64,000 bases of DNA from Candidatus Iainarchaeum sp. GTDB lineage: Archaea; Iainarchaeota; Iainarchaeia; Iainarchaeales; JAZDEL01. Below the pieces are notes generated by a model. It ran no database searches. It had not been told where the DNA came from and saw nothing but the letters and a program-made list of their open reading frames with translations. The translations under genes were made by a program, and so were the position numbers. Shown here piece after piece: positions 230 to 51,711 of this stretch. Position 1 is the stretch's first letter; every line of letters begins with the position of its first letter. Where the stretch lies: positions 41,264 through 105,263 of the forward strand of contig JAZDEL010000006.1 of NCBI GenBank assembly GCA_043808785.1. Direction: 5' to 3'.

Positions 230-604
230 CCCACTTTGGAGCAGTTATTCCACTCAGGTATGCCCTTACAGGTGGCGGCAACTTCGAGCGCAAGCTAAAC
301 TTTCCCAAGTCCACGTTCCGCGGCTTTGTCATGAATTTCCAGAATCTGGACCGCCGAAATCTCGGGCCAAGTTTCGGCTTTTTGCTGGCCTGCCGAACGT
401 TCCGGGCACCCCACGATGGCTTTTTCCTCATCACTGCCAACCACAAAAGTAATGTGTCGCTTGCAATATATATTGCTGCCGTTTTGCAGCCCAGGGGCGG
501 GAATGCGCCCCTTATGCCCGAACTTGGGTTGCCCGGGCAAAATGCAAAACCCGCAAAAAACTCACGAATTTAAGGCTGTTGTTGCAGTTTATATTAAAGA
601 GACT

Positions 605-2566
605 ATGGGTTCCGAAGAGGGAATAATCGCGGGCTTGGGCGCAAATCCTTCCGATGAGGAAATAATAGCGGGCTTCGGGGCAAAGGTCAGGGAGCACTAC
701 CCTAACCCGGACATCGGGCTGATAAGGCAGGCCTATTTCTTCGCAAAGGAGATATGCACAAACGGGAAGACCGAGGGGGGCAGGCCTTTCATAATGCACC
801 CGCTCGGCACTGCAGCCATAGTGGCCGAAATGGGCGGGGACGAGAAGGCTGTCGCAGCAGCACTGCTGCACAACACCTGGGATGCGCAGATGCACGATGC
901 CTGGGGATTGAACCTCACAGGCAGGGACATAGTTGAGCGGCGCTTTGGCTGCGAAGTTGTCGGGATTATCGACGAGGTGCTGAGGGAAAGCAAGGCTGAA
1001 CTCGGTTACAAGAACAGGCTTTCCCCTTCGCTTCAGGCAAAGCTGCTGATGGCTGCAATGAGGGACAAGAGAGGGTTCCTTGTTAAGATTGCGGCAAGGC
1101 TTGACGCATTGAGGGAAGCCGCAGGCTGGAACTTGGAAAAGCGGGGGGAAATTGCAAAGGAGGCGATTGGCGTCTTCGCCCCGATTGCGGAAAGGCTCGG
1201 CATCTACAGGATAAAGGATGAGTTCGAGGAACTGGGCTTTAAATACCTGCACCCGAACGAGTATGCCGAACTGGCGGGCAAAATGGAGTCAAGGCTTTCA
1301 AAGGAGGAGGCGTGGCTGCGCGAAGCCGGGGGGATATTGAGGAAAAAAATCTCGGACGCGCACATAGAGGCGGAGATAACCCACAGGGCAAAGACGCTTT
1401 ACAGCATCTACAGGAAAATGGAAAGGCGCGGCGTGGGGCTTGAGGGCATATACGACTTGCTCGGGCTAAGGGTAATAACCGGCAGCGTGAAGGACTGCTA
1501 TTATGTGCTCGGGCTTGTGCATGCGCAGTGGAGGCATATGGAGTCCGAGTTCAACGACTACATAGCGAAGCCGAAGCAGAACAACTACCGCGCGATACAC
1601 ACCACGATTATCGGGCCGGGAGGCGTGACAATAGAGGTGCAGATAAGGTCCGGGGACATGCACAGGATTGCGGAGCTCGGGGTTGCTGCCGACTGGAAAT
1701 ACGAGAAGGTCATAGGCGAGGAACGGTATGAAAAAAGGCTGCTCTGGCTCAAGCAACTGTTCGAGTGGGAGAGGCAGGCACAGAACCCGAGCACGGGGGG
1801 CTTTGAAATAAAGTACAAGGGCGACGTTATTGTTGCGCTGACCCCCGACGGCGCGCCTATAGAACTGCCGCGGGGCGCAACAGTGCTCGATTTCGCGTAT
1901 GCCGTGCACACCGATGTCGGGAACAGGTGCAGCGGGGCAAAGGTTAACGGCAAGATGGTTCCGCTCAGGCACGCCCTTGAAAACCTTGATGTTGTGGAGG
2001 CAATGACCTCGCAAAGGCAAAAGCCTGTGAGGGGCTGGCTGGGAATAGTGAAAAGCGAAAAGGCGAGAAAAAAGATAAGGGCTGCGCTGCATATGGAAAG
2101 CGCGGAAAAGCCGCGGAAGGGCGCTGCACTGAAACAGAAGGTTTCCATAGGCGCCCGCGGGCAGGGGATTAAGCTGGCGAAGTGCTGCAACCCTTTGCCG
2201 GGGGACGGGGTAATCGGCTACAGGACGGCAAAGCGCAAGATATCGGTGCACAGGGAAGGGTGTGCCGAAGCCAAAAAAATGGGGGCTGTGCTTAAGCCGG
2301 TTGAGGTGGAATGGGGCGCAAAAGAAGCCGGGGGCTACTCGGCAAACATGGCAATAACCGCCAGGGAGGGGGCAAACATCTCCTCGCCAATGGCCGAACT
2401 GCTTTCGAAGCACGGCATAAGGCAGTGCGCGGCAAGCCTTAAAACAGTCAACAACAAAATAGCGAACTACACTTTCACAATAGATGTGAACGACCTGAAG
2501 GCGCTCATGGGCATAATCAGGGAAGCGGGAAAAATAGACGGCGTGATTGAGGTTTCAAGGGCGTAG
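605..2566 (+). CDS. bifunctional (p)ppGpp synthetase/hydrolase, RelA/SpoT homolog (HD + synthetase + TGS + ACT)
   Basis: HD hydrolase motifs (HPLGTAAIVAEMGGD...ALLHNTWD), a nucleotidyltransferase/synthetase core (YRAIHTTIIGPGGVTIEVQIRSGDMHRIAELGVAADWKYE), a TGS-like segment and a C-terminal ACT-like segment. Start refined to Met64 of the ORF (ATG 605). Confidence 0.85.
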   Translation: MGSEEGIIAGLGANPSDEEIIAGFGAKVREHYPNPDIGLIRQAYFFAKEICTNGKTEGGRPFIMHPLGTAAIVAEMGGDEKAVAAALLHNTWDAQMHDAWGLNLTGRDIVERRFGCEVVGIIDEVLRESKAELGYKNRLSPSLQAKLLMAAMRDKRGFLVKIAARLDALREAAGWNLEKRGEIAKEAIGVFAPIAERLGIYRIKDEFEELGFKYLHPNEYAELAGKMESRLSKEEAWLREAGGILRKKISDAHIEAEITHRAKTLYSIYRKMERRGVGLEGIYDLLGLRVITGSVKDCYYVLGLVHAQWRHMESEFNDYIAKPKQNNYRAIHTTIIGPGGVTIEVQIRSGDMHRIAELGVAADWKYEKVIGEERYEKRLLWLKQLFEWERQAQNPSTGGFEIKYKGDVIVALTPDGAPIELPRGATVLDFAYAVHTDVGNRCSGAKVNGKMVPLRHALENLDVVEAMTSQRQKPVRGWLGIVKSEKARKKIRAALHMESAEKPRKGAALKQKVSIGARGQGIKLAKCCNPLPGDGVIGYRTAKRKISVHREGCAEAKKMGAVLKPVEVEWGAKEAGGYSANMAITAREGANISSPMAELLSKHGIRQCAASLKTVNNKIANYTFTIDVNDLKALMGIIREAGKIDGVIEVSRA

Positions 2567-2582
2567 CACTGGCGTGGCGGAA

Positions 2583-3713
2583 TTATTCCATGCGCAGCGC
2601 GTCCACAGGGTCCATTTTCGAGGCTGCATATGCGGGGTAAATTCCCGCAAAAATCCCCATGAAAAGGGCGAAGAGGAATGCCTCCGCTATGAGCACCGTC
2701 CCCACGACAGTTGTAAGGCCTGATAAGGAAGTGATTGCATTTGCAATGGCAATGCCTAAAATTATGCCCGCAATGCCGCCGAAAATTCCGAGGAGCGCTG
2801 ATTCGTAAAGGATCATTTTCATTACGTCATTGTTTGTCCACCCGACCGCCTTAAGCGCGCCTATTTCATTGAAGCGTTCCACAACACTCATCAGCATGGT
2901 GTTCAGTATGCCCACCCCCGCAACTATTGCCGCTATTGCGGCTACTGCGCCGACAAGCAGGCGCAGGCTGCCAAGCACGTCCCCTATCTGGCTCGAGAAA
3001 TCGCTCGCAGACCTTGCCTTGAGGTCGTCCCCGTACCTGAAATTTATTATTTCCGCTATCTTCTGGTCGTCCTCGGGGTTAGTGAGGCTGAGGCTGTACT
3101 GCGTGACCTTCCCCTGCGGCGCGTCAACAAGGTCCCTGAGGTCTGCGATAGGCATTATTATTGCCATATTGAGGATCGCCGAGCCTGTTTCGTAAACTCC
3201 CGCAATTTTGAAGCTCTTGCCGTTTATCTTTACATTGTTCCCGACAAATTTGTCGTTATCGTCGATAAATTGTTTTGAAACCATGATAACGCCCTTGTCC
3301 CCCGATTTGAGTTTCCTGCCGCTTACAAGCTCGCCTGAAAAGCCTGCTGCGCCCTCCATGCCGCCCTTGTCAAGGCCTATGCCTATGAGTTGTGCAGAGC
3401 CCCCTAAGATAGATGACGCGCCCTCTATGGACTTTGCAACAGAAACGAGTGTGGGGGTTACTTTCTCGACCCCGGTTATGGATTCGAGCTTTGCCTCATA
3501 TGAAGTGTCTATCTGGGAGAAGAGGCCTATCTGCCCCTTTTGGTAAACCACGACGCCCTGCATGTTGGAGAATGCGCCCTCAACCTCGGCAAGCATGCCG
3601 TCAACAACGGAAACCATGGCTATGATTGCGGCGACGCCTATGATTATGCCGAGCAGGGAAAGCACGGCCCTGCTGCGGTTCCTGAAAAGGTTTGAAACCG
3701 CGACCTTCAGCAT
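2583..3713 (-). CDS. ABC transporter permease, FtsX/MacB-like
   Basis: N-terminal TM helix, large periplasmic loop and C-terminal FtsX-like TM bundle. Paralog of 4417..5553. Confidence 0.8.
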   Translation of the reverse strand: MLKVAVSNLFRNRSRAVLSLLGIIIGVAAIIAMVSVVDGMLAEVEGAFSNMQGVVVYQKGQIGLFSQIDTSYEAKLESITGVEKVTPTLVSVAKSIEGASSILGGSAQLIGIGLDKGGMEGAAGFSGELVSGRKLKSGDKGVIMVSKQFIDDNDKFVGNNVKINGKSFKIAGVYETGSAILNMAIIMPIADLRDLVDAPQGKVTQYSLSLTNPEDDQKIAEIINFRYGDDLKARSASDFSSQIGDVLGSLRLLVGAVAAIAAIVAGVGILNTMLMSVVERFNEIGALKAVGWTNNDVMKMILYESALLGIFGGIAGIILGIAIANAITSLSGLTTVVGTVLIAEAFLFALFMGIFAGIYPAYAASKMDPVDALRME

Positions 3714-3725
3714 AAAACCCCCTGC

Positions 3726-4415
3726 TCAGGCCCTTGCGCGGCCGGGTTTTGTGCCCTCTATTTTCCCGTCGCGCATGTGGTACTGCACGCTGGCGAAGCG
3801 CAGGAGGCTTTCGTCGTGCGTGACTATGACGAATGTTTTTTTCTCGTCCTTGTTGAGGCGCCTCATTTCGCTGACTATTTTTCCGCCCGTAATTGAATCG
3901 AGATTGCCCGTGGGCTCGTCCGCAAAGATTATTTCCGGGTCGTTTATCAGCGCGCGTGCGATTGAAACGCGCTGCCGTTCCCCGCCAGACATTTCCGAGG
4001 GCTTGTGGAACATCCTGTCCTGCAGGCCCATCTGCCTGAGGAGCGATTTTGCCCGCCCCATGACCTTTTCCTGCGGCAGGTTCATCGGCTCGGTGGGAAT
4101 CATCACGTTTTCAAGCGCATTCAGGGTAGGAATAAGGTTGAATGCCTGGAATATGAAGCCTATTTTTTCGCGCCTTATCATTGCGAGGTGCCAGTCATCG
4201 AGCGCGGTTATGTTCTTGCCCCCTATATGCACGGTTCCTGATGTCGGATGGTCGAGCGCACCGAGGATGTGCATAAGCGTGCTCTTTCCCGAGCCGCTGG
4301 GCCCGACAATGATTACAAAATCGCCCTTCTTTACGTTGAGGGAGACGCCCCTTAGTGCGTGCACCGTGCTCCCGCCCATTTTGTATTCTTTGGTTATGCC
4401 GTTTGCCTCGATCAT
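3726..4415 (-). CDS. ABC transporter ATP-binding protein
   Basis: Walker A GPSGSGKST, ABC signature LSGGERQRVSIARAL, Walker B IIFADEPTGNLD. Start moved to the internal Met (ATG at 4415), which abuts the upstream permease stop. Confidence 0.85.
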   Translation of the reverse strand: MIEANGITKEYKMGGSTVHALRGVSLNVKKGDFVIIVGPSGSGKSTLMHILGALDHPTSGTVHIGGKNITALDDWHLAMIRREKIGFIFQAFNLIPTLNALENVMIPTEPMNLPQEKVMGRAKSLLRQMGLQDRMFHKPSEMSGGERQRVSIARALINDPEIIFADEPTGNLDSITGGKIVSEMRRLNKDEKKTFVIVTHDESLLRFASVQYHMRDGKIEGTKPGRARA

Positions 4416-4416
4416 T

Positions 4417-5553
4417 TTAACGCCCCCCGCTGATTGCGGCAACAGGGTCAAGTGATGACGCGCGGAATGCGGGGTAGATGCCCGCAAGCAGCCCTATAAT
4501 GAATGCAAAGCCGAAAGCCTGAAAAACCAATGGGGCGGTTATTGCGTAATTCAGGCCGAACGCCTGCTGGAGCGCGACATCAACGAGGAAACCAAGCACA
4601 AGCCCGAAAACTCCGCCGAGGCAGCCTAGGAAAACCGACTCATAAATTATCATGCGCATCACATCCTCGTTCCCCCACCCGACCGCCTTAAGCGCGCCGA
4701 TTTCTTTTGTGCGCTCCATTATGCTCATCAGGATCGTGTTTATTATTCCCACGCCCCCCACAATTGCGGAGATTGCCGCGATGAAAAAAACAAGAAGCCT
4801 GAAGTTGCCGAGAACGGAACCCATTTCATTCGAGAAGTCGGACGAGGTCATCGCCTCGAGGTCGTCCTTGTACTTGAAATTTATCGTGTTCGTGACCTCC
4901 TTGTCACGTGTGGGGTCGGTAAGGCCGAGGTAAAAGCTGCTAACCTTGCCCTCGGGGAAGCCGGAGAGGTCGCGCGCGTCATTTATGCTCATAACAATCA
5001 TGCTGCCCAGCATGCTCGAGCCGGCGCGGTATATGCCCCGTATCTTGAATTTTTTCCCGTCTATCTTGAAGGTGCTGCCGGGAAACTTGTCGTATTCGTC
5101 GGCAAGCTGCCTGCCGATAACCACATAGCCGTCCTCGCCGGGCTTGAGGAACTGGCCTTCCTCTATTTCCCCGACCCAGGGAACGCCGCCGAGAAGGAGA
5201 TAATCCCTTGCATCGAGGCCGTAAACAGCTGTGCTCATCATGCTGGTTACGGGACCGCCCTCTATGGTTGAAGGCAGCCCCCAGAGTTCGGGCATTGCCA
5301 GGCGCACGCCCCTGACGGATTCGAGTTCGTTCCCATAAGATTCGTCGACCTTTGAAAGCGTCTGGTCCATGGCGTCGCGCTCCATTACGTAAACGCCCTG
5401 GAACTGGCCTATGACGCTGTTCAGTTCCGCGTAAAGGCCGTCAACCATTGAAACAAGCACTATTATTGCGGCGACGCCTATGATTATGCCGAGCAGCGCA
5501 AGCGCGGTCCTGCTCTTTCTCCTGAAAAGATTTAGGAAGGATAACTTAATCAT
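4417..5553 (-). CDS. ABC transporter permease, FtsX/MacB-like
   Basis: Same architecture as 2583..3713. Confidence 0.8.
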   Translation of the reverse strand: MIKLSFLNLFRRKSRTALALLGIIIGVAAIIVLVSMVDGLYAELNSVIGQFQGVYVMERDAMDQTLSKVDESYGNELESVRGVRLAMPELWGLPSTIEGGPVTSMMSTAVYGLDARDYLLLGGVPWVGEIEEGQFLKPGEDGYVVIGRQLADEYDKFPGSTFKIDGKKFKIRGIYRAGSSMLGSMIVMSINDARDLSGFPEGKVSSFYLGLTDPTRDKEVTNTINFKYKDDLEAMTSSDFSNEMGSVLGNFRLLVFFIAAISAIVGGVGIINTILMSIMERTKEIGALKAVGWGNEDVMRMIIYESVFLGCLGGVFGLVLGFLVDVALQQAFGLNYAITAPLVFQAFGFAFIIGLLAGIYPAFRASSLDPVAAISGGR

Positions 5554-5565
5554 AAGTATTCGGGA

Positions 5566-6786
5566 TTAGGCCTTCCGCATTGCGAGCTGCCTAAAGACCA
5601 TTTTGATTATGAAGTACAGGAGTACAAGGATTACTATTATGAGAATCAGGAGCCCTATAGGGGATTCCGCGGGCTTCTGGTGCACATAAATCTCGAAATC
5701 CCGGGTTACTTGCTGCACGTTGTCAAGTTCGTCGCGGTAGGTTATTGTCACAGGCACGCTGTGCTTGCCTGTTTCCGCGGAAGGGTTTACTGTGAGGGTG
5801 AAAAGCCCCGACCCTGAGTCGTCCTCGTCTATGTTACCGACATAAGTCTCCAGTACGCCCTCTATGCTCTGGTCGGGGGCGAGGGAAATTTTAGTGGCTT
5901 TTGCGGTTTCCTCGCCTATGTTGTCCAGTTGCACCGAGAGCGTGAGGGTGTCGCCCAGCATTATGCGCTTGTCGTCGGTGCGGTACTCTATCGAAAAGTC
6001 GATCCCCGAAATTATGAGGTCCGGCTTGCCATATACATCGAAAGAAAATGCCTGCGTTGCGGTTGAGGGGCAGTCGAGGCAGTTTGCATCTATGTTGAAG
6101 ACATAGGTTTTAGGCGCCGCCTTGTCGGAAACCCTGAGTAGGAAATTTATTGTTTTGGACTCGCCCTGCGGTATGTTGCCTGGCTCGAGCACTGTGTCCG
6201 ACAGGGATATGAAAGGGTCGAGGGTGCTGTTTGTCTTCGGGATCAGCTTCACAGTTACGTCCCTTGCCTCGCCGGAGCAGTTGTTCGAGAGGTTCGCAGT
6301 TATGCGTAAGGTTTCGCCGATGTGCGGGGAATAGCTGTCAAGCATTACGTTTCCGACATCGAGGCCATAGCACTCCACCACAAGCAGGTTAACGTCGTAG
6401 CTCTGTTCGATGCGCTTGGTTCCGTTGAGGTATGAGAGATTAACCGAGAATTTGTAGGTTCCCGCGTATGCCTTTTCTTTTATTTTGAACCTGAAAACCG
6501 CGTTTTTGAGCGCGCCGGCATAAATCGTGCCGAGCTGCTCGGTTACGTGGATGGGCTCGAAATACGCCCCGCTCAGCATCAGTGTTGCGTTAACGTCGGT
6601 GGCTATGGAATTGCCGGAGGTGTTTTCCACCCTTACATTGAGGTTTACCGTGTCGCCCGCATAAACAGTTGCAGGGCTCTGGGAGAAGGTGCCGACCTTG
6701 AGGATTGTGTCGTATGTGCTGGAGTAGGCGGCAAATGCCGAGGGCAGCAGGATAAACGCAACCAGAAGAAAAACAATGCGCTTCAT
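5566..6786 (-). CDS. secreted cell-surface protein (S-layer-domain/CARDB-like, COG1361-type partner of the ABC operon)
   Basis: Signal peptide MKRIVFLLVAFILLPSAFA, beta-rich repeats, C-terminal TM anchor followed by basic residues. Position is typical of the archaeal surface-protein + ABC ATPase + permease operon. Confidence 0.6.
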   Translation of the reverse strand: MKRIVFLLVAFILLPSAFAAYSSTYDTILKVGTFSQSPATVYAGDTVNLNVRVENTSGNSIATDVNATLMLSGAYFEPIHVTEQLGTIYAGALKNAVFRFKIKEKAYAGTYKFSVNLSYLNGTKRIEQSYDVNLLVVECYGLDVGNVMLDSYSPHIGETLRITANLSNNCSGEARDVTVKLIPKTNSTLDPFISLSDTVLEPGNIPQGESKTINFLLRVSDKAAPKTYVFNIDANCLDCPSTATQAFSFDVYGKPDLIISGIDFSIEYRTDDKRIMLGDTLTLSVQLDNIGEETAKATKISLAPDQSIEGVLETYVGNIDEDDSGSGLFTLTVNPSAETGKHSVPVTITYRDELDNVQQVTRDFEIYVHQKPAESPIGLLILIIVILVLLYFIIKMVFRQLAMRKA

Positions 6787-12856: not shown

Positions 12857-14029
12857 ATGGAACTGTTTCTCGTTCTCGGCGCGCTGTTCCTGCTGACGTT
12901 CCTTATCGGGCAGGTTGTGGAGAAAATAAGGGTGCCGTGGATTTTCGCCGCGCTGCTCATAGGCACCGTGCTTGCCGCGTATAACCCGGTCGGGGACGTG
13001 ACCTCGTCCGAGCCGTTTATTTTCCTGGCGCAAATGGGGATGTATTTCCTTCTTTTCGTGATAGGGTTTGAGATAGACCTTGCGGAGTTCAGGAAGGCGG
13101 GTGCGTTCATACTGAAGAGCACGTTTTTCATAATCCTGCTTGAGGCGGTGTTCGGCAGCCTGCTTATCCACTTCGTTTTCGGGTATGATTGGGCGATATC
13201 GGCAATAGTTGCGCTGTCCTTCGCCACGGTTGGGGAAGCCATACTCATCCCGATACTTGACGAGTTCGGCATCGTTAACACGAGGCTCGGGCAGAGCATA
13301 ATAGGGATAGGGACGCTCGACGACATAATAGAGGTTGCGATGCTTATCGTGGTAATAATGCTCGTTGGCTCGCAGGGCGCGGCGCAGGCAAGCGCGGGGG
13401 TTACGCTTGTTTCGCTCTTCGTGCTTTCCGCGCTTGCCGTGGTGCTGATGAGGCTGGGCAAGTCGGGCAGGAAGTTCATGTTTCACGGCATCGAGATGCT
13501 TTTCCTGTTCGTGCTTTTCGTGCTTTTCCTTTTCCTCGGGGTCGGGGAGTATGCGAACGCGGGGCCTATAGCCGCGCTCCTTGCGGGGATTTCGCTTAAG
13601 GCGTTTGTGCCGAAGGAGAGGCTGCAGGCGATAGAGTCCGAGGTAAAGACGATGTGCTACGGCTTCTTTGCGCCGGTGTTTTTCCTCTGGGTCGGGCTTT
13701 CGCTCGACATAGGGTATCTGCTTGCGTTTCCGCTGCTTGTGCTTGCGGTAGTGGTTGTTTCAAACAGCGCGAAGATTCTGGGCAGCTACATAATGGCGAG
13801 GAAGGAGCTTGGCACAAGGCAGTCGATTCTGCTCGGCATCGGGCTGTCAGTGAGGTTCAGCACGAGCATAATCATAGTAAAGATTCTTCTTGACAACGGG
13901 CTTATAGGCGCGGAGTTGTATTCGGTAATTGTCGCGTCAAGCATAGTGTTCAAGTTTGTCGTGCCCGTGCTGTTCTCAAACCTGCTCGTGAAGTGGGGCG
14001 TTTCGAAGGGCTCAACCGTAGCGGGGTAA
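12857..14029 (+). CDS. cation:proton antiporter (CPA2 / Kef-type Na+(K+)/H+ exchanger family)
   Basis: About 11-12 TM helices with Na_H_exchanger-like motifs. 390 aa. Confidence 0.7.
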   Translation: MELFLVLGALFLLTFLIGQVVEKIRVPWIFAALLIGTVLAAYNPVGDVTSSEPFIFLAQMGMYFLLFVIGFEIDLAEFRKAGAFILKSTFFIILLEAVFGSLLIHFVFGYDWAISAIVALSFATVGEAILIPILDEFGIVNTRLGQSIIGIGTLDDIIEVAMLIVVIMLVGSQGAAQASAGVTLVSLFVLSALAVVLMRLGKSGRKFMFHGIEMLFLFVLFVLFLFLGVGEYANAGPIAALLAGISLKAFVPKERLQAIESEVKTMCYGFFAPVFFLWVGLSLDIGYLLAFPLLVLAVVVVSNSAKILGSYIMARKELGTRQSILLGIGLSVRFSTSIIIVKILLDNGLIGAELYSVIVASSIVFKFVVPVLFSNLLVKWGVSKGSTVAG

Positions 14030-14222: not shown

Positions 14223-14858
14223 CTATTCCGTCGCAGCCATGGCCCGCGCTAGTTTATAGGGGTTTGAAAAGCCGATTTCGGAAATCCATTTTCGCAGGTT
14301 TGCCTTCCCGTTTAGTGGAACCTTATATGCGGTTCGGACTGATGTTTTTGATTTGTAAGCCCAAATTTTTGCAACATTGAATCCGGCAACGCTTAATAGT
14401 TCCTTCAACTGTTCCGCAAGAGCGCGGCTCGTAGTGGTTATCTCAATAGAAGGGTATTTCGGCGAGCCCGGTTTGTCGGCCACGAAAACGGAGCCGTCCG
14501 TGTCCACGATGCCCCGGATTGCGTGCTTTGCCGACTCCCAATCGGCTTCGATTTCGGCGGGAATTTTGGCCTTAGCGCACTTGCCTTCATGGAAAGGCAA
14601 CCTGAATGTAGTCGTCAGGCGTTCCACGATCGGCTTAGAGTCAAATTTAATTCTGACCGCACGTTCCCTGAATTTAGGCTTAACCACCCGCCCCCATGCG
14701 GAATAAATTAGGCGGCTCAGATTTTCAAAATACTGCGCATCGGTTATTGGATTTCCCGTAAAGCCGATTATGTATTTCCTGTTGCGTTTGTAAATGTGCC
14801 CGTCCCCGAGGTAGGCGCCGATTAGTTCGCATTCTTCGGGAGAAATAGTTTCAGCCAT
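14223..14858 (-). CDS. LAGLIDADG homing endonuclease, double-motif, free-standing
   Basis: Two LAGLIDADG motifs, LIGAYLGDGHI and IRGIVDTDGSV. 211 aa, between two intron-containing tRNA genes. Confidence 0.8.
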   Translation of the reverse strand: MAETISPEECELIGAYLGDGHIYKRNRKYIIGFTGNPITDAQYFENLSRLIYSAWGRVVKPKFRERAVRIKFDSKPIVERLTTTFRLPFHEGKCAKAKIPAEIEADWESAKHAIRGIVDTDGSVFVADKPGSPKYPSIEITTTSRALAEQLKELLSVAGFNVAKIWAYKSKTSVRTAYKVPLNGKANLRKWISEIGFSNPYKLARAMAATE

Positions 14859-43344: not shown

Positions 43345-44652
43345 TTAGTTCCCCTTCAAAAATTTGCCAATGTCAACCTTCGGCACAGGCACCTTTGAAA
43401 AATCCTTCCCGTGCGCAACTATGGGCTTCGTCATGTCGAACCCCGCCTTGCACGTCGCCCTCGTGTTCGGGTCCGCGCTCGGGTCTATGCTCGACCCTTT
43501 TTCATTCGGCTTCATAACGAAATCCTTGTCCGCCTGGAAGCGCGTTGACATCGCCCACTCGACATCCTGCGGATTGTAGATGTTTATGTCGTCATCAACA
43601 ACAAAAACATGCTTGCACGACCTGTGCCCGCGCATTGCGGCTTCAATAGCCCTCTTCCCGTCCTCTTCCGCGCGCTTCTGTATCTGCACAATCACGTGCA
43701 GCCACGAGCACCCGCCCGTGCTTACAAAAACATCCCTGCATTTCACGCCCGCCTTCTCCACTTCCTTGAATACCGTGGGCTCCTTAGGCATCCCCATCAG
43801 CAGCCTGTGCTCGTAATATGAGGAAAGAAGCGCGTGGTAAATAGGGTTCTTCCTGTGCGTGATTTTCTTCACCTCAAAAACAGGCTGCTCCCTCTGCACG
43901 TCCATGGTTCCCGTCAAATCAACAAACGGCCCCTCCTTCGCGGTTTCCTTTGTGAAGCGCCCTTCAAGGACGAACTCGGCGTCGGCGGGAACCATGACGT
44001 CCGTGCTTTTTGCTTTTGTTATTTTCAATGGTTCAAGCGTGTTTGCAATCGTGAACTCGTCGATGCCGAGGTCCACGGATGTCGCCCCCGCAAGCAGCAC
44101 ATTCGGGCTCATGCCTATGCAGAACGCGGCATCAAGTTCTCCGTCATTGCGCTTTATGAACTCGTTCAGGTGCCTCTCAAGTATGCGCATCGTGAACTTA
44201 TTTTTCCCAATCTGCAGCGCCCTGTGGAAAGAAAGGTTCATTCCCGCCTCGCGGTCGCGTGCAAAGACAATGCCGGCCGTAACATAGTTGCCTGCTTCCC
44301 CCCCGAAGTGGTGCAGCAGCGGCAGCTTGTCAAGGTCAACAGGCATCTCCATTTCCTTGCATGGCGCGTCCTTCACAACCGCAGGCTCCGTCCTTGCATC
44401 CAGCGCCCTAATCATGCGCGGAATTAATTCCCGTGTTTTTATCCCGAAATACTCCGCAATCAAATCCTTCGTGCTGAAAAAATTCGCGGCAGTCCGTATT
44501 CCCGTTCCCCCGATATCCTCGAAAACCATCGGCTGTTCCGGCATTGCAGCCATTATCCCCGCAGCCTCGAACTTCTTCGAAACCTTGCCTGAAATTTTCC
44601 TGACCCTGCCCTGCTTCTCCAATTTTGCAACGAACTCCCTGAAACCCATCAT
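43345..44652 (-). CDS. UbiD-family decarboxylase, probable trans-anhydromevalonate-5-phosphate decarboxylase
   Basis: UbiD-like sequence, 435 aa, next to ubiX and the mevalonate genes. Confidence 0.75.
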   Translation of the reverse strand: MMGFREFVAKLEKQGRVRKISGKVSKKFEAAGIMAAMPEQPMVFEDIGGTGIRTAANFFSTKDLIAEYFGIKTRELIPRMIRALDARTEPAVVKDAPCKEMEMPVDLDKLPLLHHFGGEAGNYVTAGIVFARDREAGMNLSFHRALQIGKNKFTMRILERHLNEFIKRNDGELDAAFCIGMSPNVLLAGATSVDLGIDEFTIANTLEPLKITKAKSTDVMVPADAEFVLEGRFTKETAKEGPFVDLTGTMDVQREQPVFEVKKITHRKNPIYHALLSSYYEHRLLMGMPKEPTVFKEVEKAGVKCRDVFVSTGGCSWLHVIVQIQKRAEEDGKRAIEAAMRGHRSCKHVFVVDDDINIYNPQDVEWAMSTRFQADKDFVMKPNEKGSSIDPSADPNTRATCKAGFDMTKPIVAHGKDFSKVPVPKVDIGKFLKGN

Positions 44653-44700
44653 GAACCCTCCAAACCATTGCCGCGTTTTTTGTTTTGTTATTTTGTTTTT

Positions 44701-45303
44701 TTATTTCCGATTCCCCGCAATTGCTTGCTTTCCTTCCCAGCGCCTGTAAAGGTTGTTCTCCAACCCAATTAAATCCATAACCTTCCCCGCAACAAAGTTC
44801 TCCAAATCGCCTATGGTTTTGGGTTTGTGGTAAAACCCGGGGCTGAGCGGAAAGACAATCCCTCCGGCAACCGCAATCTTGTGCAGGTTCTCGAGTGCGG
44901 GTGCGCTCAGCGGAGTCTCCCTCACGCACACGACCAGCGGCTTCCTTGTGCGCAGCATGTTGTCGGCACAGCGCGTTATAAGCGTGTTTGTGTACGCATT
45001 AGCAATCCCCGAGCACGTCTTCACGCTCGTGGGAACAACAACCATTGCATCCACTTTAAACGAGGTGCTTGAAACCTTTGCCCCCATCTCCTTTTCCGAG
45101 TAGTGGAAGTGCGCCAGTTCTTTTATTTGCTTTGCCCCAATGTTCGCTTCGGCCTTAACCAGTTCCTCCGCCCACTCGCTCATTATCAGGTGCATCTCAA
45201 CGCCCCTTTCCTTCCCCAGCGCCTTAAGCAGTGCAACCGCGTAATTCACTCCAGATGCGCCGCTCATTGCAATAATTATCCTGCGCTTAGCCATGTCACA
45301 CAC
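44701..45303 (-). CDS. ubiX: flavin prenyltransferase UbiX
   Basis: IIIAMSGASGVNYAVALLKAL, 200 aa. Confidence 0.85.
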   Translation of the reverse strand: MCDMAKRRIIIAMSGASGVNYAVALLKALGKERGVEMHLIMSEWAEELVKAEANIGAKQIKELAHFHYSEKEMGAKVSSTSFKVDAMVVVPTSVKTCSGIANAYTNTLITRCADNMLRTRKPLVVCVRETPLSAPALENLHKIAVAGGIVFPLSPGFYHKPKTIGDLENFVAGKVMDLIGLENNLYRRWEGKQAIAGNRK

Positions 45304-46234
45304 CGATTCTTGTTTTCACACTCGAATATCCGAGTTTTTCAATCGCTTCCGCAACCTTCCCCTGCAGGTCCTTCCCTGGCGTGAGCGCAACCATAAGCCC
45401 GCCCCTTCCTGTGCCTGTCAATTTTGCCCCCAGTGCCCCCGCACCGCGCGCGGCACCAACCATCTCATCCAACTCATCACAACTAACCGTAATTTTTTGC
45501 AGGAGTCCGTGGTTTTTGTTCATCAGACCGCCAACCTTTTTGAAGTCGGAAGCAAGCAGGGCTTTTTTCGCCTCCTCCGCAATTTTTTCATACTCATCAA
45601 AAACCTTCGCGGTTTCGTTTGGTTTTTCATCCTTAAGCCTGCGCACGTCAGCAATCACTTCCTTAGTGCTGCTTGTCCTCCCGCTGTTGCCTAGCACAAT
45701 CTCCACAGGCTTCTCCATTTTCAGTTTCTCCATTTCGTTCTTCCCCCCATCAGCGCCCTTCCTGAAAACAATCATCCCGCCGTAAACCGCCGCGGTATTG
45801 TCAATCCCGCTCGGCGTGCCGTGCGGCCCCTTCTCGCCCTCATATGCGGCCTCGTTTATTTTCTCATTATTCCGGCCCATTTTGAACTCGTCATCAATCG
45901 CCCGTGCAAGCGCGGTAGCGCACGCCGCGCTCGCCCCCACGCCCGAAGCCGCAACCAATGTTCCGCCAAGCGTGATGCGCACCTGCTCCTTCACGCCCAT
46001 GAACGCAAGCACATTCTCAATCAGCGCCTCGTATTCCCCGCGCTTCTGAACCTTATACCCCGGTGTTTCGGGCCTGTTGTCAACAAGTTCGTATTTTTTC
46101 CCGTTTGCCAATTTCACGCGCCCGACCTTGGCAGTTGTCGCATCCCCGAGCGCGCACGCAATCGCGGACATTCCATAAACAACGAAATGTTCGCCGAAAA
46201 GGATTGTTTTCCCGAAGCCCGAACCAGTGCCCAT
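45296..46234 (-). CDS. mvk: mevalonate kinase (GHMP kinase)
   Basis: GKTILFGEHFVVYG N-terminus and GHMP motif. Start set to the internal ATG at 46234. Confidence 0.8.
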   Translation of the reverse strand: MGTGSGFGKTILFGEHFVVYGMSAIACALGDATTAKVGRVKLANGKKYELVDNRPETPGYKVQKRGEYEALIENVLAFMGVKEQVRITLGGTLVAASGVGASAACATALARAIDDEFKMGRNNEKINEAAYEGEKGPHGTPSGIDNTAAVYGGMIVFRKGADGGKNEMEKLKMEKPVEIVLGNSGRTSSTKEVIADVRRLKDEKPNETAKVFDEYEKIAEEAKKALLASDFKKVGGLMNKNHGLLQKITVSCDELDEMVGAARGAGALGAKLTGTGRGGLMVALTPGKDLQGKVAEAIEKLGYSSVKTRIGV

Positions 46235-46355
46235 TGCAACCAACCGCGCCCAAAAAACCAAACCGCCATCCAAAAAACAGAAAACGGTTTTTTGTTTTTC
46301 GTTTCCGCCAACCAAGAAACCAAATGCGTTTTTGTTTTTTTATTTCCGCTTCCCC

Positions 46356-46778
46356 TTACTTCACGACCCTGAACTTGTAGCCGTAGGCAATCGCCCCTTC
46401 TTTCCTCTGCTCGGAAATCTTCCTGAAAACCTTCTCCACATGTGCGCCTATCCTTACCTTTTCATTTTCGCTGTCCACGACCTGGCTTAACAGCCTCGCG
46501 CCGTTCTCAAGTTCTATTATCGCAAGGAAATAAGGCGTTTCGTGGTCGAACCCCGTGGGTCCTGTCATTACCTCCGTGTATGAAATAACCTTCCCCTTCC
46601 TCGGCATCTGCTTTGCTGAAAGCTTCCCGCGCCTCCTGCAGTTCGGGCAAACTCCCCTTGCCGGGAAGAAATCCTCGCCGCATGTGCTGCACGAATTGCC
46701 GGCAAGCGTGTAGCGCTCGGGGAACTTCCTCCAGATTAACGGCAGTGCTTCGCTCATTTCATGCACCCCCCGCAACAC
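46356..46778 (-). CDS. DUF35 OB-fold/zinc-ribbon protein (scaffold of the archaeal thiolase-HMGCS complex)
   Basis: CSTCG...CPNC zinc ribbon plus OB fold. Confidence 0.75.
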   Translation of the reverse strand: MLRGVHEMSEALPLIWRKFPERYTLAGNSCSTCGEDFFPARGVCPNCRRRGKLSAKQMPRKGKVISYTEVMTGPTGFDHETPYFLAIIELENGARLLSQVVDSENEKVRIGAHVEKVFRKISEQRKEGAIAYGYKFRVVK

Positions 46779-48045
46779 AATATGCGAATTTATTTCCCGT
46801 TAATTTCCTCTCGACAAGCCCCTCTTCAGACATCCGCAATAGAACATCGCGCACATGCCTTCCCGACCTTTTGCACGCCTTTGAAATGCCCGAAGCGGTT
46901 GCGAGAACGCCCTGCGCATTAAGATTTGTGATTGCTTTAATATAGTTCTCCGAAGCCTCGTGGCGCGGGAAAGACTCGAGCCCGTCAACATACCTGCCAA
47001 GAACATGCACGAGTTTGTTTTCCTTCCGTTCCAGGCCGAAACCGACCTTCTCGAGATATTTCCGCAGGTTCTCCCTACCGCTTATTATAAGTGTCCAATT
47101 GAGCGTAACTTCCCCGCTGCTTTTGAAATTGCGCCCCCTGACGACTATTTTTGATTTAATGCCCATGACTTCCAATGACTGCTGAACATCCGACAGCAAC
47201 TGCGGCTTTTTTGCGGCAGTTTCTTCCGCAGCGGTTGTGGGGCATATCAGAGTAATCACCCTGCAGTGATAATTATCCACAACACAGCCGTCATCGTCAA
47301 ACAGCCGTCTCAGGAGGGCTATAAGCGGCTTTCTATCGCCCGCCGCAATGAACTGCCTGGGAATTCCTAATTCGTAATTATAATTTTTGTTGCCGTCAGG
47401 AATCCCGATAGTGCCGAGGATTACGCCGATTATTTTGGGGAAAATTACGCAGGGCACGCCGCTTGTCGACCTGTGGCGTGCAAACCTGACATCGCCAAAT
47501 GTGGAAACAACCGCACCCACAAAACTATCGACCTGCTGGCGCTCGTTGTTGAAGTACCAGACGCGCATCTTGCTTTTTTCTATCCCGCCGTCGCCCAAAA
47601 CTCCGCCAACAACAAGCCCGAATTCCTCGGTCAAAATTTCGAAAGGCAGCTTCGGGTTTTTTATTTTCTCTTTTGATTTCAGGGTTTTCAATTCAATTAC
47701 TTTCTTTTCTATCTTCCGCCCGTTAATGCCAAGTTCATCCGCAGCCCTGGCCAAAAACGAAAGCGGCATGCCGCTCCTTCCGACGGAATACCGCCTTGCG
47801 GATTCGCCCCTGCCGAGCCCGAAAGCCCTTGCGATTGCGGAAAACGAGCCGTGTTTCTTCAAGAGCGCCCCGAATAGTTCCTTCCTGAACTCGGCATCCA
47901 GCGTAACGCGAATTTTGCCCGCAGGCAAATCAAAAAGGGAAATGCTCGCCATTTCATCTTCACCAGCAATAAATATGTTTTTTATCCCCTTAAATAGTTT
48001 CGGGAGAGTGCATTTCCGGTGCGAAACAGAAATTTCCGTATTCAT
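46759..48045 (-). CDS. LAGLIDADG-family protein (double-motif) with N-terminal HTH-like and C-terminal winged-helix-like extensions
   Basis: LVVGGVLGDGGI and LIALLRRLFDDDGCV motifs. Its ATG overlaps the thiolase TGA (ATGA at 48045-48042), and its stop overlaps the DUF35 start by 20 nt. Confidence 0.7.
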   Translation of the reverse strand: MNTEISVSHRKCTLPKLFKGIKNIFIAGEDEMASISLFDLPAGKIRVTLDAEFRKELFGALLKKHGSFSAIARAFGLGRGESARRYSVGRSGMPLSFLARAADELGINGRKIEKKVIELKTLKSKEKIKNPKLPFEILTEEFGLVVGGVLGDGGIEKSKMRVWYFNNERQQVDSFVGAVVSTFGDVRFARHRSTSGVPCVIFPKIIGVILGTIGIPDGNKNYNYELGIPRQFIAAGDRKPLIALLRRLFDDDGCVVDNYHCRVITLICPTTAAEETAAKKPQLLSDVQQSLEVMGIKSKIVVRGRNFKSSGEVTLNWTLIISGRENLRKYLEKVGFGLERKENKLVHVLGRYVDGLESFPRHEASENYIKAITNLNAQGVLATASGISKACKRSGRHVRDVLLRMSEEGLVERKLTGNKFAYCVAGGA

Positions 48046-49220
48046 CTTTTCCCCTCCAGTGCCTGCAAAATGTGAATCACGCATGTTGCCCCACTCCCCC
48101 CGATATTGTGCGTCAGCCCTATGTGCGCATTCTTAACCTGCCTCTTCCCCGTAACCCCCCTTACTTGCTCGCAAATCTCGATAGCCTGCTTAACGCCTGT
48201 TGCGCCGACAGGGTGCCCGCATTTAAGCCCGCCCGAGGTGTTAATCGGGATTTCACCTTTTAGTGCGGTTTTTCCGTCCTCGCTTGCTTTTCCCCCTTTG
48301 CCCTTTTTGAAGAACCCCAAATCCTCTATTGCAAGTATTTCCGCGATTGTAAAGCAGTCATGCACTTCCGCCAAATCAATATCCGAAATCTTAAGTCCCG
48401 ACTGCCTGAGCGCCTCCTGCACCGCAACCTTCGTCGCCCACAGTTCGGTAAGGCTCTTCCTGCTAGCAACGGCAAGAGTATCCGAAGCCTGCGCGCTCGC
48501 AATAATCTCGACAGGTTCCTCACACAGTTTTCTTGCCTTATCCGTCGCACACAGGATTGCCGCTGCTGCACCGTCGCTGATGGGCGAGCAATCCAGCAGT
48601 TTCAGGGGAGTTGCAACATACCCTGAATTCATCACATCCTCAATTGTAATTTCATTGTGGAATTGTGAGTGGGGGCTGTGCATGCCGTTCGCATGGTTCT
48701 TCACTGCAACAGCGGCCATCTGTTCCTCCGTTGTTTTGAACTCGTGCATATGCCTCCTTGCAAGCAGCGCATAGAGTGCGGGGAAAGTTGCGCCCTGGAA
48801 AAGCTCGGTTTCCTGGTCCCCCGCGCCCCCCAAAGCAAAGCCCGCTTCCTCGGTGCTTACCTCAGTCATCTTCTCCGCCCCGCCGACAGCAACAACATCA
48901 TACATTCCGGAAGCGATCGCGTGGTAAGCCGCCCTAAGGGCAACCCCGCCAGAAGCGCATGCAGCCTCAACACGCGTGCTCGGCGCGGGATTCAGCCCTA
49001 ACTGATCCGCAATAAGCGCCCCAATATGCTCCTGCCCTATGAACCTTCCAGAAGCCATGCATCCGCCGTAAACCGCCTCTATATCCGCCCCGCTTATGCA
49101 CGCGTCGCTTATCGCCATTATTCCCGCCTCGGCAATAAGCTCGCGGAACGACTTGCCCCAGTGCTCCCCGAATTTCGTTATGCCCGCGCCGATAACCGAA
49201 ACGCTCCTCATGCCGCGCAC
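48042..49220 (-). CDS. acetyl-CoA C-acetyltransferase (archaeal acetoacetyl-CoA thiolase)
   Basis: Thiolase Cys region CASGG, C-terminal NIGGSGATCV. Confidence 0.9.
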   Translation of the reverse strand: MRGMRSVSVIGAGITKFGEHWGKSFRELIAEAGIMAISDACISGADIEAVYGGCMASGRFIGQEHIGALIADQLGLNPAPSTRVEAACASGGVALRAAYHAIASGMYDVVAVGGAEKMTEVSTEEAGFALGGAGDQETELFQGATFPALYALLARRHMHEFKTTEEQMAAVAVKNHANGMHSPHSQFHNEITIEDVMNSGYVATPLKLLDCSPISDGAAAAILCATDKARKLCEEPVEIIASAQASDTLAVASRKSLTELWATKVAVQEALRQSGLKISDIDLAEVHDCFTIAEILAIEDLGFFKKGKGGKASEDGKTALKGEIPINTSGGLKCGHPVGATGVKQAIEICEQVRGVTGKRQVKNAHIGLTHNIGGSGATCVIHILQALEGKR

Positions 49221-49337
49221 CCCGTGCCAATGCCGATTGCGGAAACGCCTCTCATAGCATCAACCCTTTCGACAAATTTTCCCGCAAAACCCCGCCCGTG
49301 AACCCGCGCGCGGTTTTTTGTTTTTTTGCCGCCCCCG

Positions 49338-50384
49338 TCAGAGCGACTTCAGCTTCCTCCTGTGTTTCGTGTAAAGCGCGTAATCGATGTACTTTTTCTC
49401 CTTTACCATTTCAAGCACAGGCACCTTCGCCCTTCTCCCCGGGATGTTCCTTGTGGCAGTAAATGAGAACGCATCGCTTCCCGCCCCCGAACCGTAACTT
49501 ACCGCAAGAATTTTCTGCTTCGGCTTTGCAACATCAAGAATGCTCGCCAGGCCCAGCATTGTTGAGCCCGAGTATGTGTTGCCTATTATGGGCGTTACCA
49601 GGCCCTGCTCCAGCCTCCCCCTTTCCACGCCCAGAATTTTCCCCGCGCGCAAAGGAAACTTCCCGTTGGGCTGGTGGAAAACCACGTAATCGAAATCCGA
49701 AACCTTCTCCCCCGTCCTGTTCAGCAGCCCCTTTGCGGCGCCAACCACATGCCTGAAATATGCCGGCTCTCCTGTGAAACGCCCCCCGTGCTCGGGGAAC
49801 TCCGCGTGCTGCCTCCTCCAGAAATCGGGCGTGTCAGTTGTGAATGAAAATGTGTCATTAACCCGCGCAATAATTTCCTTCGGCTTCCTGCCGATTATTA
49901 TCGCCGCCCCGCCGCTCCCCGCGGTGTATTCAAGCGCATCACCGGGCTTCCCCTGTGCAGTGTCCGCGCCTATAGCCATCCCGTACTCTATCATTTTGCT
50001 CTCGCAAAACCCTATGCACATCTGCACCCCCGCAGTGCCGGCCTTGCACGCAAACTCCAAATCCGCAGCCATGTACTCGGGCGCTGCGCCTATCGCGTCC
50101 CCGACAATTGTTGATGTGGGCTTCACAGCATAAGGGTGGCTCTCGCTCCCCACGTAAAGCGCCCCTATTTTGATTGCATCAATCTTCGCGGTTTCCACAG
50201 CGCGCCTTGCCGCTTCCACAGAAATGGTTGCGCAGTCCTCGTCATAGGCGGCAACAGCCTTCTCCCTCACCCCCAGGCCCGCGCTTATGCGCTTTCCGTC
50301 CTTTTCCCAGACGCGCGCTATATCCTCGACCGCAATCCTGAACTTCGGCACATATGCGCCGTAACCCACAATTCCGCAATCCAT
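49338..50384 (-). CDS. hydroxymethylglutaryl-CoA synthase
   Basis: Archaeal HMGCS-like sequence, 348 aa, with the catalytic Cys region. Confidence 0.9.
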   Translation of the reverse strand: MDCGIVGYGAYVPKFRIAVEDIARVWEKDGKRISAGLGVREKAVAAYDEDCATISVEAARRAVETAKIDAIKIGALYVGSESHPYAVKPTSTIVGDAIGAAPEYMAADLEFACKAGTAGVQMCIGFCESKMIEYGMAIGADTAQGKPGDALEYTAGSGGAAIIIGRKPKEIIARVNDTFSFTTDTPDFWRRQHAEFPEHGGRFTGEPAYFRHVVGAAKGLLNRTGEKVSDFDYVVFHQPNGKFPLRAGKILGVERGRLEQGLVTPIIGNTYSGSTMLGLASILDVAKPKQKILAVSYGSGAGSDAFSFTATRNIPGRRAKVPVLEMVKEKKYIDYALYTKHRRKLKSL

Positions 50385-50409
50385 ATGCCCACCGGTTATT
50401 AATGTTCAA

Positions 50410-51711
50410 TTAACCTCTCTTTTTATTCTCTTTCCTTTCCCCCGCGGGTTTTGCCGCCTTCTTTCGCAGATTGACGAGAATTTCCGCTGCGTTATCCGCG
50501 GATATCCTGCCGCATTTTGCCATTTCCCCCGCAACCTTCTCAATTTCCCCGCCTTTTGCCCCCGCTGCAACCGCAACATTCTTCGCATGCAGCCCCATGT
50601 GCCCTTTCTGTATCCCCTCCTTCACAATCGCGCGGTTTGCGGCAAATGTCTGCGCAAGCCCGACAGCGCAGCACACCTCCGCAAGCTCCTTCGCGCTTTT
50701 AATTCCCATAATTTTCAATGCAATTTTTGCAAGAGGGTGAGTTTTTGTCGCCCCCCCGACAATTCCCAAAGCGAGCGGCATTTCCATTTCCCCCGCCAAA
50801 TCCCCCGATTTGGTTATGTAGAAGTTCTGCAGTGCCCTGTATGTTCCGTCCCTCGCGGCATAGGCATGCGCCCCGGCCTCCGCAGCGCGCCAGTCATTGC
50901 CCGCAGCAATCAGCACGGCATCGATGCCGTTCATAATCCCCTTGTTGTTCGTGCACGCCCTGAAAACATCCGCCTGCGCAAGCGCGCTTGCATCCGCGAT
51001 TGCCTCAACCAATTCGCCCCCCAATTCCTCCTTTTTCCACACCGCGCACGCCTTTACGGTGCGGTGTATCGCATAATTGCTTATTATTTTAAGGCGCGCC
51101 CTGCCGCCTGCCAACCTCTCCAATTCGGGCGCAATCCTCTCGCACATGCTGTTCACGGCATTCGCGCCCATCGCATCGCCGCAGTTCACGAGGATGTGCA
51201 TAACCAGCATCTTCCCGCGCTGCGTTTCCACTTCGCGCAGCTGAATTTCCTTTGCGCCTCCCCCGAATTTCAGGAGGACAGGGTCGCAGGAATTTGCTGT
51301 TTTGAGCAGTGAGGCGGAATTTGCCGTTATCTCGCGCTCCGCCTTCCCGAAATCCTTAACCCCCACCAGCTGCACCTGCCCTATCATAATCGGTTCGCTC
51401 GCCTCCGCCTTGAACCCCCCCAAAGCGCGCGCCAATTTTGCCGCGTTGGAGGCGGCGGCAATAATGCTCGGCTCCTCGGTAACCATGGGCACAAGATAAT
51501 CCTTCCCGTTCACGCGGAAGTTCGTCGCAACCCCCATAGGCATTCCGTAAACGCTCACCGCGTTCTCCACCATCCTGTCCGCGGTCTCGAACTCCAGCCC
51601 GCCCTTCCCGAGCGCCGCAACCTCATCAGCGCCGAGCGCGGACTCGCGCTTGAGCACATCAAGCCTCTCCCCGCGCTTCAATTTGTAAAACCCGCTTATG
51701 TCAGATTTCAT
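50410..51711 (-). CDS. HMG-CoA reductase, class II (bacterial/mvaA type)
   Basis: VPMVTEEPSIIAAASNAAKLARALGGF and DAMGAN motifs. 433 aa, with no membrane domain. Confidence 0.85.
   Translation of the reverse strand: MKSDISGFYKLKRGERLDVLKRESALGADEVAALGKGGLEFETADRMVENAVSVYGMPMGVATNFRVNGKDYLVPMVTEEPSIIAAASNAAKLARALGGFKAEASEPIMIGQVQLVGVKDFGKAEREITANSASLLKTANSCDPVLLKFGGGAKEIQLREVETQRGKMLVMHILVNCGDAMGANAVNSMCERIAPELERLAGGRARLKIISNYAIHRTVKACAVWKKEELGGELVEAIADASALAQADVFRACTNNKGIMNGIDAVLIAAGNDWRAAEAGAHAYAARDGTYRALQNFYITKSGDLAGEMEMPLALGIVGGATKTHPLAKIALKIMGIKSAKELAEVCCAVGLAQTFAANRAIVKEGIQKGHMGLHAKNVAVAAGAKGGEIEKVAGEMAKCGRISADNAAEILVNLRKKAAKPAGERKENKKRG

Follow-up and report, generated by a model that had tools for sequence, protein, structure and literature searches.

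The window analysed here, a 64,000-nt stretch of contig JAZDEL010000006.1 of Candidatus Iainarchaeum sp. (positions 41,264 to 105,263), carries on its minus strand a 428-amino-acid (aa) open reading frame (ORF) with two LAGLIDADG motifs at 46759–48045 (TGA at 46759–46761). The ORF is placed exactly between the genes for acetoacetyl-CoA thiolase (48042–49220, minus strand; Pfam Thiolase_N and Thiolase_C_1, PF00108/PF22691) and for a DUF35 protein (46356–46757, minus strand; Pfam OB_ChsH2_C at E = 1.7e-16 and zf-ChsH2). We consider it probable that it represents a free-standing monomeric LAGLIDADG homing endonuclease gene (HEG), a site-specific selfish element of the thiolase/DUF35 junction in the mevalonate operon of Iainarchaeota. 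The coordinates and the neighbours had been given in a preliminary description of the window and were confirmed by the ORF list and by Pfam. The identity of the protein was confirmed by Pfam, AlphaFold2, Foldseek and an NCBI match, the latter a 100% identical protein annotated as [quoted passage not shown]. Upstream, the thiolase/endonuclease/DUF35 group is flanked by genes for HMG-CoA synthase and HMG-CoA reductase, and downstream by a mevalonate kinase gene, and the HMG-CoA synthase, the thiolase and the DUF35 protein (ChsH2-type zinc ribbon and OB) were each matched by Pfam.

The ATG of the endonuclease gene (48045–48043) overlaps the thiolase TGA (48044–48042) as ATGA, an overlap noted before and confirmed in the sequence. 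At the other end, the DUF35 ATG (46757–46755) begins 1 nt past the endonuclease TGA, so that non-coding sequence bordering the ORF amounts to 0 nt at one end and 1 nt at the other. The 20-nt overlap with DUF35 that had been reported earlier rested on a GTG at 46778 and had to be withdrawn, as nine DUF35 orthologues start with M-x(2-4)-ALPLxWRK and their aligned N-termini place the start at ATG 46757. The reading frame of the endonuclease differs from those of both neighbours, and the limits of the ORF are their stop and start codons.

Pfam assigned aa 242–335 of the window protein to LAGLIDADG_3 (E = 2e-10, 41 bits against a cut-off of 22.5 bits), and an AlphaFold2 model built from nine homologues reached a predicted local distance difference test score (pLDDT) of 86.5 and a predicted template modelling score of 0.76, residues 1–30 alone being disordered (pLDDT <50). 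With this model as the query, Foldseek retrieved from the PDB the endonucleases TliVMA (1e-9), PI-PfuI (7e-9), I-Tsp061I, I-DmoI and PI-SceI together with WhiA, the E values for PI-PfuI, TliVMA, I-Tsp061I and I-DmoI ranging from 1e-9 to 1e-5. A PDB sequence search with the single window protein gave a chance match only, and a family profile was required; in its alignments, GDG (motif 1) paired with ADG in the intein endonuclease TliVMA, and FDD(D/E)G (motif 2) with FDAEG in PI-PfuI. Because of the Pfam score, the model and the structural matches to LAGLIDADG endonucleases, the motifs are not fortuitous, which disposes of the possibility, raised at the outset, that the protein belongs to another fold. 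The best structural matches are monomeric archaeal or intein LAGLIDADG enzymes, and I-DmoI, I-Tsp061I, PI-PfuI and TliVMA have in common with the window protein a pseudo-dimeric two-domain core, an acid ending each motif helix and the Pfam family LAGLIDADG_3. In contrast to I-DmoI, PI-PfuI and their group, the window gene lies outside any rRNA intron or intein, between two protein cistrons of a chromosomal operon, and its product is larger by ~200 aa owing to an N-terminal helix-turn-helix (HTH)-like domain and a C-terminal winged helix.

The matches in NCBIfam were to intein-bearing proteins, as would be expected if the ORF were an intein, and they were restricted to the endonuclease inserts of these proteins. 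Pfam found no Hint or intein domain in the window endonuclease, whose termini (MNTE or MASI at the N-terminus, AGGA at the C-terminus) lack splicing residues, and an Rfam scan of 45500–50500 found no intron family at E ≤ 0.1. Together with the separate reading frame, the virtual lack of non-coding sequence at either end and the confirmed fold, this makes it vanishingly improbable that the gene is an intein, an ORF carried by an intron or a protein of some other fold in which the motifs arose by chance. The preliminary description had likewise argued that the gene is not an intein; its suggestion of a domesticated maturase is not supported, there being no intron to mature.

Along the minus strand, the N-terminal helical HTH-like domain (aa 33–135; 47641–47949) ended in a conserved IKNPKLPF linker, was conserved in all homologues and was modelled with confident helices. 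LAGLIDADG domain 1 (47341–47640) carried the motif LVVGGVLGDGGI at 47581–47616 (aa 144–155), and LAGLIDADG domain 2 (46996–47340) carried LRRLFDDDGCV at 47281–47313 (aa 245–255). The C-terminal winged-helix-like domain (aa 355–428; 46762–46983) was modelled as helices 361–377, 384–391 and 395–407 followed by a β hairpin at 411–424; its 75 aa gave sub-threshold Pfam matches to winged HTH families (TrmB at 0.0016, DtxR-N at 0.0028, also PaaX and HTH_29), and the last ~70 residues of the family profile matched DtxR-, MarR- and Lrs14-type winged HTH structures in the PDB (E 0.004–0.05). The first ~80 core residues of the profile matched the HTHs of XRE, HipB and C.BclI at E 0.03–0.2, near chance, and Pfam HTH_50 matched the N-terminal domain below threshold (0.05), hinting that this domain may be an HTH. 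The Pfam, AlphaFold2, Foldseek and profile matches therefore point to an architecture in which a pair of LAGLIDADG domains is preceded by an HTH-like domain and followed by a winged helix, in line with the extra terminal segments recognised earlier.

In LAGLIDADG endonucleases, each LAGLIDADG helix ends C-terminally in a metal-binding acid (D20/E117 in I-DmoI) and basic residues from the β1–β2 loops lie near the active site (K42/43 and K120/130 in I-DmoI); alleles that lack the gene are cleaved site-specifically at a long target of ~20 bp. In the window protein, the putative catalytic residues D152 (domain 1) and D252 (domain 2) end the motif helices and aligned to the TliVMA and PI-PfuI acids. 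The nine-sequence alignment showed invariant D152, G153, K157, R161, N219-K220-N221, D250-D252, G253 and R262, among which K157 and R161 (domain 1 loop), R262 (domain 2 loop) and K220 are candidates for the basic residues near the active site. A sample of 20 distant family members had D at the first motif and D or E at the second, as well as an invariant lysine and tryptophan. Judged from the alignments, the active-site acidic residues of both motifs are intact, a point that the preliminary description had left to be checked, and by fold and active-site signature the window product belongs to the LAGLIDADG endonuclease superfamily and is predicted to be a monomeric two-domain enzyme.

These residues bear on the serious rival to a selfish endonuclease, namely a domesticated, host-beneficial LAGLIDADG protein kept by selection, either a WhiA-like DNA-binding regulator or an HO-like nuclease with a cellular role, which would be co-expressed with the mevalonate operon and might regulate it; we regard this as unlikely. 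The two appended HTH-type domains give the window protein a WhiA-like architecture: the bacterial, domesticated WhiA/DUF199 shares the LAGLIDADG fold and a C-terminal HTH, and the full-length WhiA structure (3hyi) was among the Foldseek matches at E = 4.5e-7. WhiA, however, has neither the acidic nor the basic residues of catalysis and is present in Gram-positive bacteria without exception (PMC3384342), whereas the putative catalytic residues of the window gene are invariant and its distribution is patchy. The Pfam scan of the window protein gave no match to the WhiA family. The yeast HO endonuclease (F-SceII) is likewise a free-standing, intein-type LAGLIDADG protein that has remained catalytic and has gained a DNA-binding domain at its C-terminus; HO keeps intein remnants and zinc fingers and serves the host in mating-type switching (PMC3384342), whereas no host function is indicated for the window gene.

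We located Shine-Dalgarno (SD)-like strings at both ends of the endonuclease gene: GGAGGGG in the thiolase tail (48051–48057, minus strand) precedes the endonuclease ATG by 5 nt, and GGGGGGTG in the last endonuclease codons (46764–46771, minus strand) precedes that of DUF35 by 6 nt. All nine occupied loci had GGTG, GGAGG or GGGGG at the 3′ end of the endonuclease, 5–12 nt ahead of the ATG of the next gene, and coupling signals were present at both gene ends except in L002 and L091, where the 5′ signal was missing. In relatives lacking the HEG, a matching SD-like motif in the thiolase tail precedes the DUF35 ATG. The element therefore takes one coupling signal from the thiolase tail and supplies another from its own tail. 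The tight coupling on both sides counts in favour of domestication as well.

The start codon of the endonuclease is ambiguous between ATG 48045 and M32 (MASISLFDLP...; 47950–47952, minus strand), the latter preceded at 7 nt by GGTGA and forming the start of the family core. M32 is favoured by the NCBI call of 397 aa and by the distant family members, all of which begin at the equivalent "M..IHLFDLP". The long form is favoured by a frame that stayed open, in 8 of the 9 occupied loci, back to an ATG overlapping the thiolase stop or lying no more than ~10 nt downstream of it, usually with an SD-like string ahead. In addition, the 31-codon extension (MNTEISVSHRKCTLPKLFKGIKNIFIAGEDE; 47953–48045, minus strand), which lies outside the family core, encodes a weakly conserved peptide H-R-K-x-T-L-S/P-K-x-F with variation of the synonymous type at third positions. 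The extension is probably translated, the predicted disorder of residues 1–30 and the start of the distant members at M32 speaking against this. Its conservation is particular to the thiolase/DUF35 subfamily, which would fit a domesticated protein.

Two loci from Logan assemblies, L002 (~6030–6060) and L091 (~890–925), encode the extension peptide (H-R/W-K-x-T-L-S/P) in a frame other than that of the endonuclease core, which could reflect a real frameshift, an assembly error or an extension that is not needed as protein. As both read the CACCGGAAA...TTTAA block in the other frame, they gave rise to the idea of a promoter or operator DNA element; variation at third codon positions in 7 of 9 loci fits a coding constraint better, and both loci remain exceptions. 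The possibility that the extension derives from the N-terminus of DUF35 was suggested by HRK against WRK at equal distance from the Met in the window; this resemblance failed in the other loci and at the nucleotide level.

A search of 5.8 billion proteins returned the window's own protein and eight homologues at 44–54% identity, and a metagenome scan added a tenth copy, L092, 42% identical to the window protein. All ten copies sit between thiolase and DUF35 on contigs of Iainarchaeota (Diapherotrites). Small extra ORFs, YbjQ-like or of 103 aa, follow the endonuclease in L003 (4590–4904) and L089 (2679–2990). To survey empty sites, a thiolase alignment was scanned against one genome per species (GTDB), yielding 80 loci of Iainarchaeota and Micrarchaeota. 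Carriers numbered two, both on contigs already found, and in ~70 of the 80 loci DUF35 came directly after thiolase, mostly 0–50 nt apart. The two nearest thiolase relatives of the window (80–81% identity) had the same operon with an empty junction that read stop, 2 nt and ATG. In a neighbour-joining tree of HMG-CoA synthase, thiolase and DUF35 (30 bootstrap replicates), the five carriers with full context were scattered in the Iainarchaeota part and formed five separate lineages in 30/30 replicates. Each had a non-carrier relative at 73–90% identity compared to 72–75% for the nearest carrier, as in L004, which was 90% identical to the non-carrier L011 and 75% to the nearest carrier.

The copies thus share one insertion site and occur sporadically among relatives. 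Because it is absent from the nearest relatives of the window and from ~95% of related species with an identical operon, the gene is dispensable to its hosts; the same absence tells against a domesticated function. The earlier statement that the gene is fixed in the operon is not supported, given that ~70 related species and the two nearest relatives lack it in the same operon. Of the alternative, raised with it, that synteny would reveal a conserved operon part devoid of endonuclease features, the conserved position stood, whereas the endonuclease features are kept and the gene is dispensable, so that this alternative fails. Presence in ten lineages combined with absence from the closest relatives favours a selfish mobile gene over both a recent invader and a domesticated regulator.

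Some non-carriers have unrelated small genes in the thiolase/DUF35 junction (YbjQ-like, ~400-aa malic-enzyme-like, HD-domain-like and small basic ORFs), the occupied gaps measuring ~340–370 nt in L028, L037 and L047, 1189 nt in L010 and 594 nt in L017. In these archaea the junction serves as a general site of insertion.

The nine endonuclease copies were 34–66% identical to one another, a divergence at which synonymous sites are saturated, and the thiolases of the carriers were 70–79% identical. In the window, the G+C content at third codon positions (GC3) was 0.57 in the endonuclease gene against 0.65 in the flanks. The divergence of the copies, its correlation with that of the flanks and a GC3 near that of the host exclude the recent invasion of the window genome that had been proposed; they indicate that the endonuclease lineage has long been associated with the thiolase/DUF35 site. 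Amelioration of GC3 is uneven between the carrier lineages: the gene had 0.24 against 0.43 in the flanks of L002 and 0.32 against 0.58 in those of L091, and the deficit was 0.18–0.26 in L002, L089, L091 and L003, 0.07 in the window and ~0 in L001, L004 and L088. A GC3 well below that of the host flanks in several carriers counts in favour of a selfish gene. The data on age fit two histories equally, one of vertical descent in which the gene was precisely lost many times and one in which it was repeatedly transferred among relatives.

Several observations weigh against a selfish homing element. The distances between endonuclease copies correlated with those between their flanks (Mantel r = 0.75, p ~0.001), and the closest endonuclease pair was also the closest pair in HMG-CoA synthase and HMG-CoA reductase, 2–3 kb away; such co-divergence would equally be seen if the gene had a host function and had long been inherited vertically under selection. 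A classic homing cycle predicts some degraded copies, and none turned up among the ~70 empty or otherwise-occupied junctions, nor were remnants found in 15–20 related loci with a thiolase–DUF35 gap of 100–1200 nt (best E 0.2). Conserved blocks near the junction were alike in carriers and non-carriers, which leaves self-immunity unexplained unless the insertion splits the target; the target site itself could not be deduced from the comparison of carrier and non-carrier flanks, the junction sequence varying between species. A scan of viral contigs found no relatives of the family as possible vectors.

Part of this evidence favours the domesticated protein introduced above, as do the same position in ten lineages diverged to 70–79% thiolase identity, intact full-length ORFs with no pseudogenes, copy divergence parallel to that of host genes and a nearly ameliorated GC3 in the window. 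Part is shared by a further reading, which we regard as quite improbable: the gene may be stranded and no longer mobile, an ancient vertical insertion that was repeatedly lost, whose product may still fold and bind DNA but would no longer home because every allele within reach in each population is occupied or resistant. Such a relic would agree with the old divergence of the copies and their co-divergence with the flanks, with their rarity (ten copies from the 5.8-billion-protein search and one metagenome scan) and with the lack of viral vectors in the viral contig scan. A non-functional HEG should decay, however, and the mean column identity of 61%, the invariant catalytic residues and the absence of frameshifts from the core point to purifying selection in the ten copies, while scarless precise loss in dozens of lineages is hard to achieve unless empty alleles replace the gene by recombination.

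The gene belongs to a wider family, as seen in a profile search covering 1.84 billion representatives: E ≤ 1e-3 was reached by 2103 proteins and E ≤ 1e-30 by 93. Among the top matches listed, most were of ~390–420 aa, had the same architecture and spanned the whole core. The metagenome loci with family members had a GC content of 30–41% and archaeal neighbour genes. Family members lay between the ribosomal protein genes S19 and L22 (L107, 3480–4706; also L105, L136, L140 and L111), directly after SRP54 (L093, 3489–4721, with Pus10 downstream; also L096, L134 and L137) and beside the archaeal NreA gene, and further loci with members at the S19|L22, SRP54 or NreA sites were L139, L126, L123, L138, L101, L145 and L119. 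In L106, a free-standing member (3483–4706) directly follows an SRP54 gene (303–3422) with an apparent LAGLIDADG-bearing intein (a 1039-aa product with a split G-domain, read from translation only), so that two endonuclease elements stand side by side. Each sub-lineage of the family seems to have its own housekeeping-gene junction. Such a spread is the pattern expected of site-specific free-standing HEGs and not of a regulator of one pathway, and it counts, with the conserved catalytic residues that WhiA has lost (PMC3384342) and the absence of the gene from the nearest relatives, against the domesticated regulator that the preliminary description had offered as one of its options.

The selfish homing endonuclease thus remains our preferred explanation, and from sequence comparison we infer for the window gene a nuclease activity, a target site, homing and a mode of expression that would work together as follows. 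Having no room for signals of its own, the endonuclease gene would be co-transcribed with the operon, and its translation would be coupled to that of thiolase, whose tail provides an SD-like sequence and whose stop forms the ATGA overlap. The SD-like sequence in the last endonuclease codons would keep DUF35 translated, and the insertion is therefore proposed to be nearly neutral for the essential operon. The protein would bind a long asymmetric target through its two LAGLIDADG β-saddles, with the N-terminal HTH-like and C-terminal winged-helix domains possibly lengthening or anchoring target recognition. A gene-less allele would be cut at or near the thiolase/DUF35 junction, and repair of the double-strand break from a gene-carrying allele would copy the gene in.

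Stand-alone endonuclease genes of this kind have known counterparts. The seg and mob genes of phage T4 and the free-standing LAGLIDADG ORFs known from the mitochondria of fungi and the chloroplasts of algae are likewise intergenic, near conserved genes and sporadic, and free-standing HEGs are generally restricted to intergenic targets (PMC13619312, 2026). In contrast to T4 seg/mob, whose enzymes are of the GIY-YIG or HNH type, the window gene encodes a LAGLIDADG enzyme and resides in an archaeal chromosome (DPANN). It differs from other free-standing HEGs in occupying a translationally coupled junction and in re-supplying an SD-like sequence to the downstream gene. A literature search of incomplete coverage found no paper describing this ~400-aa family or a comparable operon-junction case.

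The remaining features of the window concern the surroundings of the gene. The cluster looks like an archaeal-type mevalonate pathway cluster: with the stretches at 43345–46315 and 49338–51711 (minus strand), it comprises genes for HMG-CoA reductase, HMG-CoA synthase, thiolase, the endonuclease, DUF35, mevalonate kinase and a UbiX-like flavoprotein and a UbiD-like gene, the UbiD and UbiX names resting on synteny and translation only. The same order was seen in L001, L002 and L151, which have AcnX genes next. An Rfam match to the Plastid-psbA-2 3′UTR, located between the genes for mevalonate kinase and DUF35 (46272–46347, plus strand), stayed below threshold at 27.6 bits (gathering score 55.8; E = 0.037) and is most likely due to chance. 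A second LAGLIDADG ORF of 211 aa lies at 14223–14858 (minus strand; motifs LIGAYLGDGHIY and AIRGIVDTDGSV; Pfam LAGLIDADG_3, E = 3e-12), apparently free-standing and adjoining a membrane-protein ORF at 12857–14029. The genome therefore has at least two stand-alone LAGLIDADG genes, differing in size.

Automatic annotation already picks out genes of this type, and the biology follows known homing-endonuclease principles, so the surprise is moderate; what sets the window gene apart from characterised members is the coupled archaeal operon junction, the three-part architecture and the many siblings at other housekeeping junctions. As a tentative and rather unlikely conjecture, the family may form an uncharacterised class of archaeal "operon-junction" tri-domain LAGLIDADG elements (HTH, LAGLIDADG twice, winged HTH). 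Each lineage of this class would be tied to one coupled housekeeping junction (thiolase|DUF35, S19|L22 or after SRP54), and the elements would be long-lived and nearly cost-free through their own coupling signals, with some perhaps co-opted as operon-specific regulators or as gene-conversion drivers that homogenise essential operons in DPANN populations. For annotation, the locus is a warning that a mobile element can hide in a gene order that looks "conserved" because several metagenome-assembled genomes share it. The wider family, of at least 2,000 sequence clusters, represents untapped monomeric meganucleases of interest for genome engineering, which probably read longer targets through their two extra DNA-binding domains and whose targets can be guessed from the conserved insertion sites. 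If the enzyme is active, the window gene would document a free-standing LAGLIDADG HEG inside a chromosomal operon of an essential pathway in DPANN archaea, and would illustrate how a coupled junction can harbour a selfish gene without polar damage, the gene borrowing the upstream signal and giving an SD-like sequence to its downstream neighbour.

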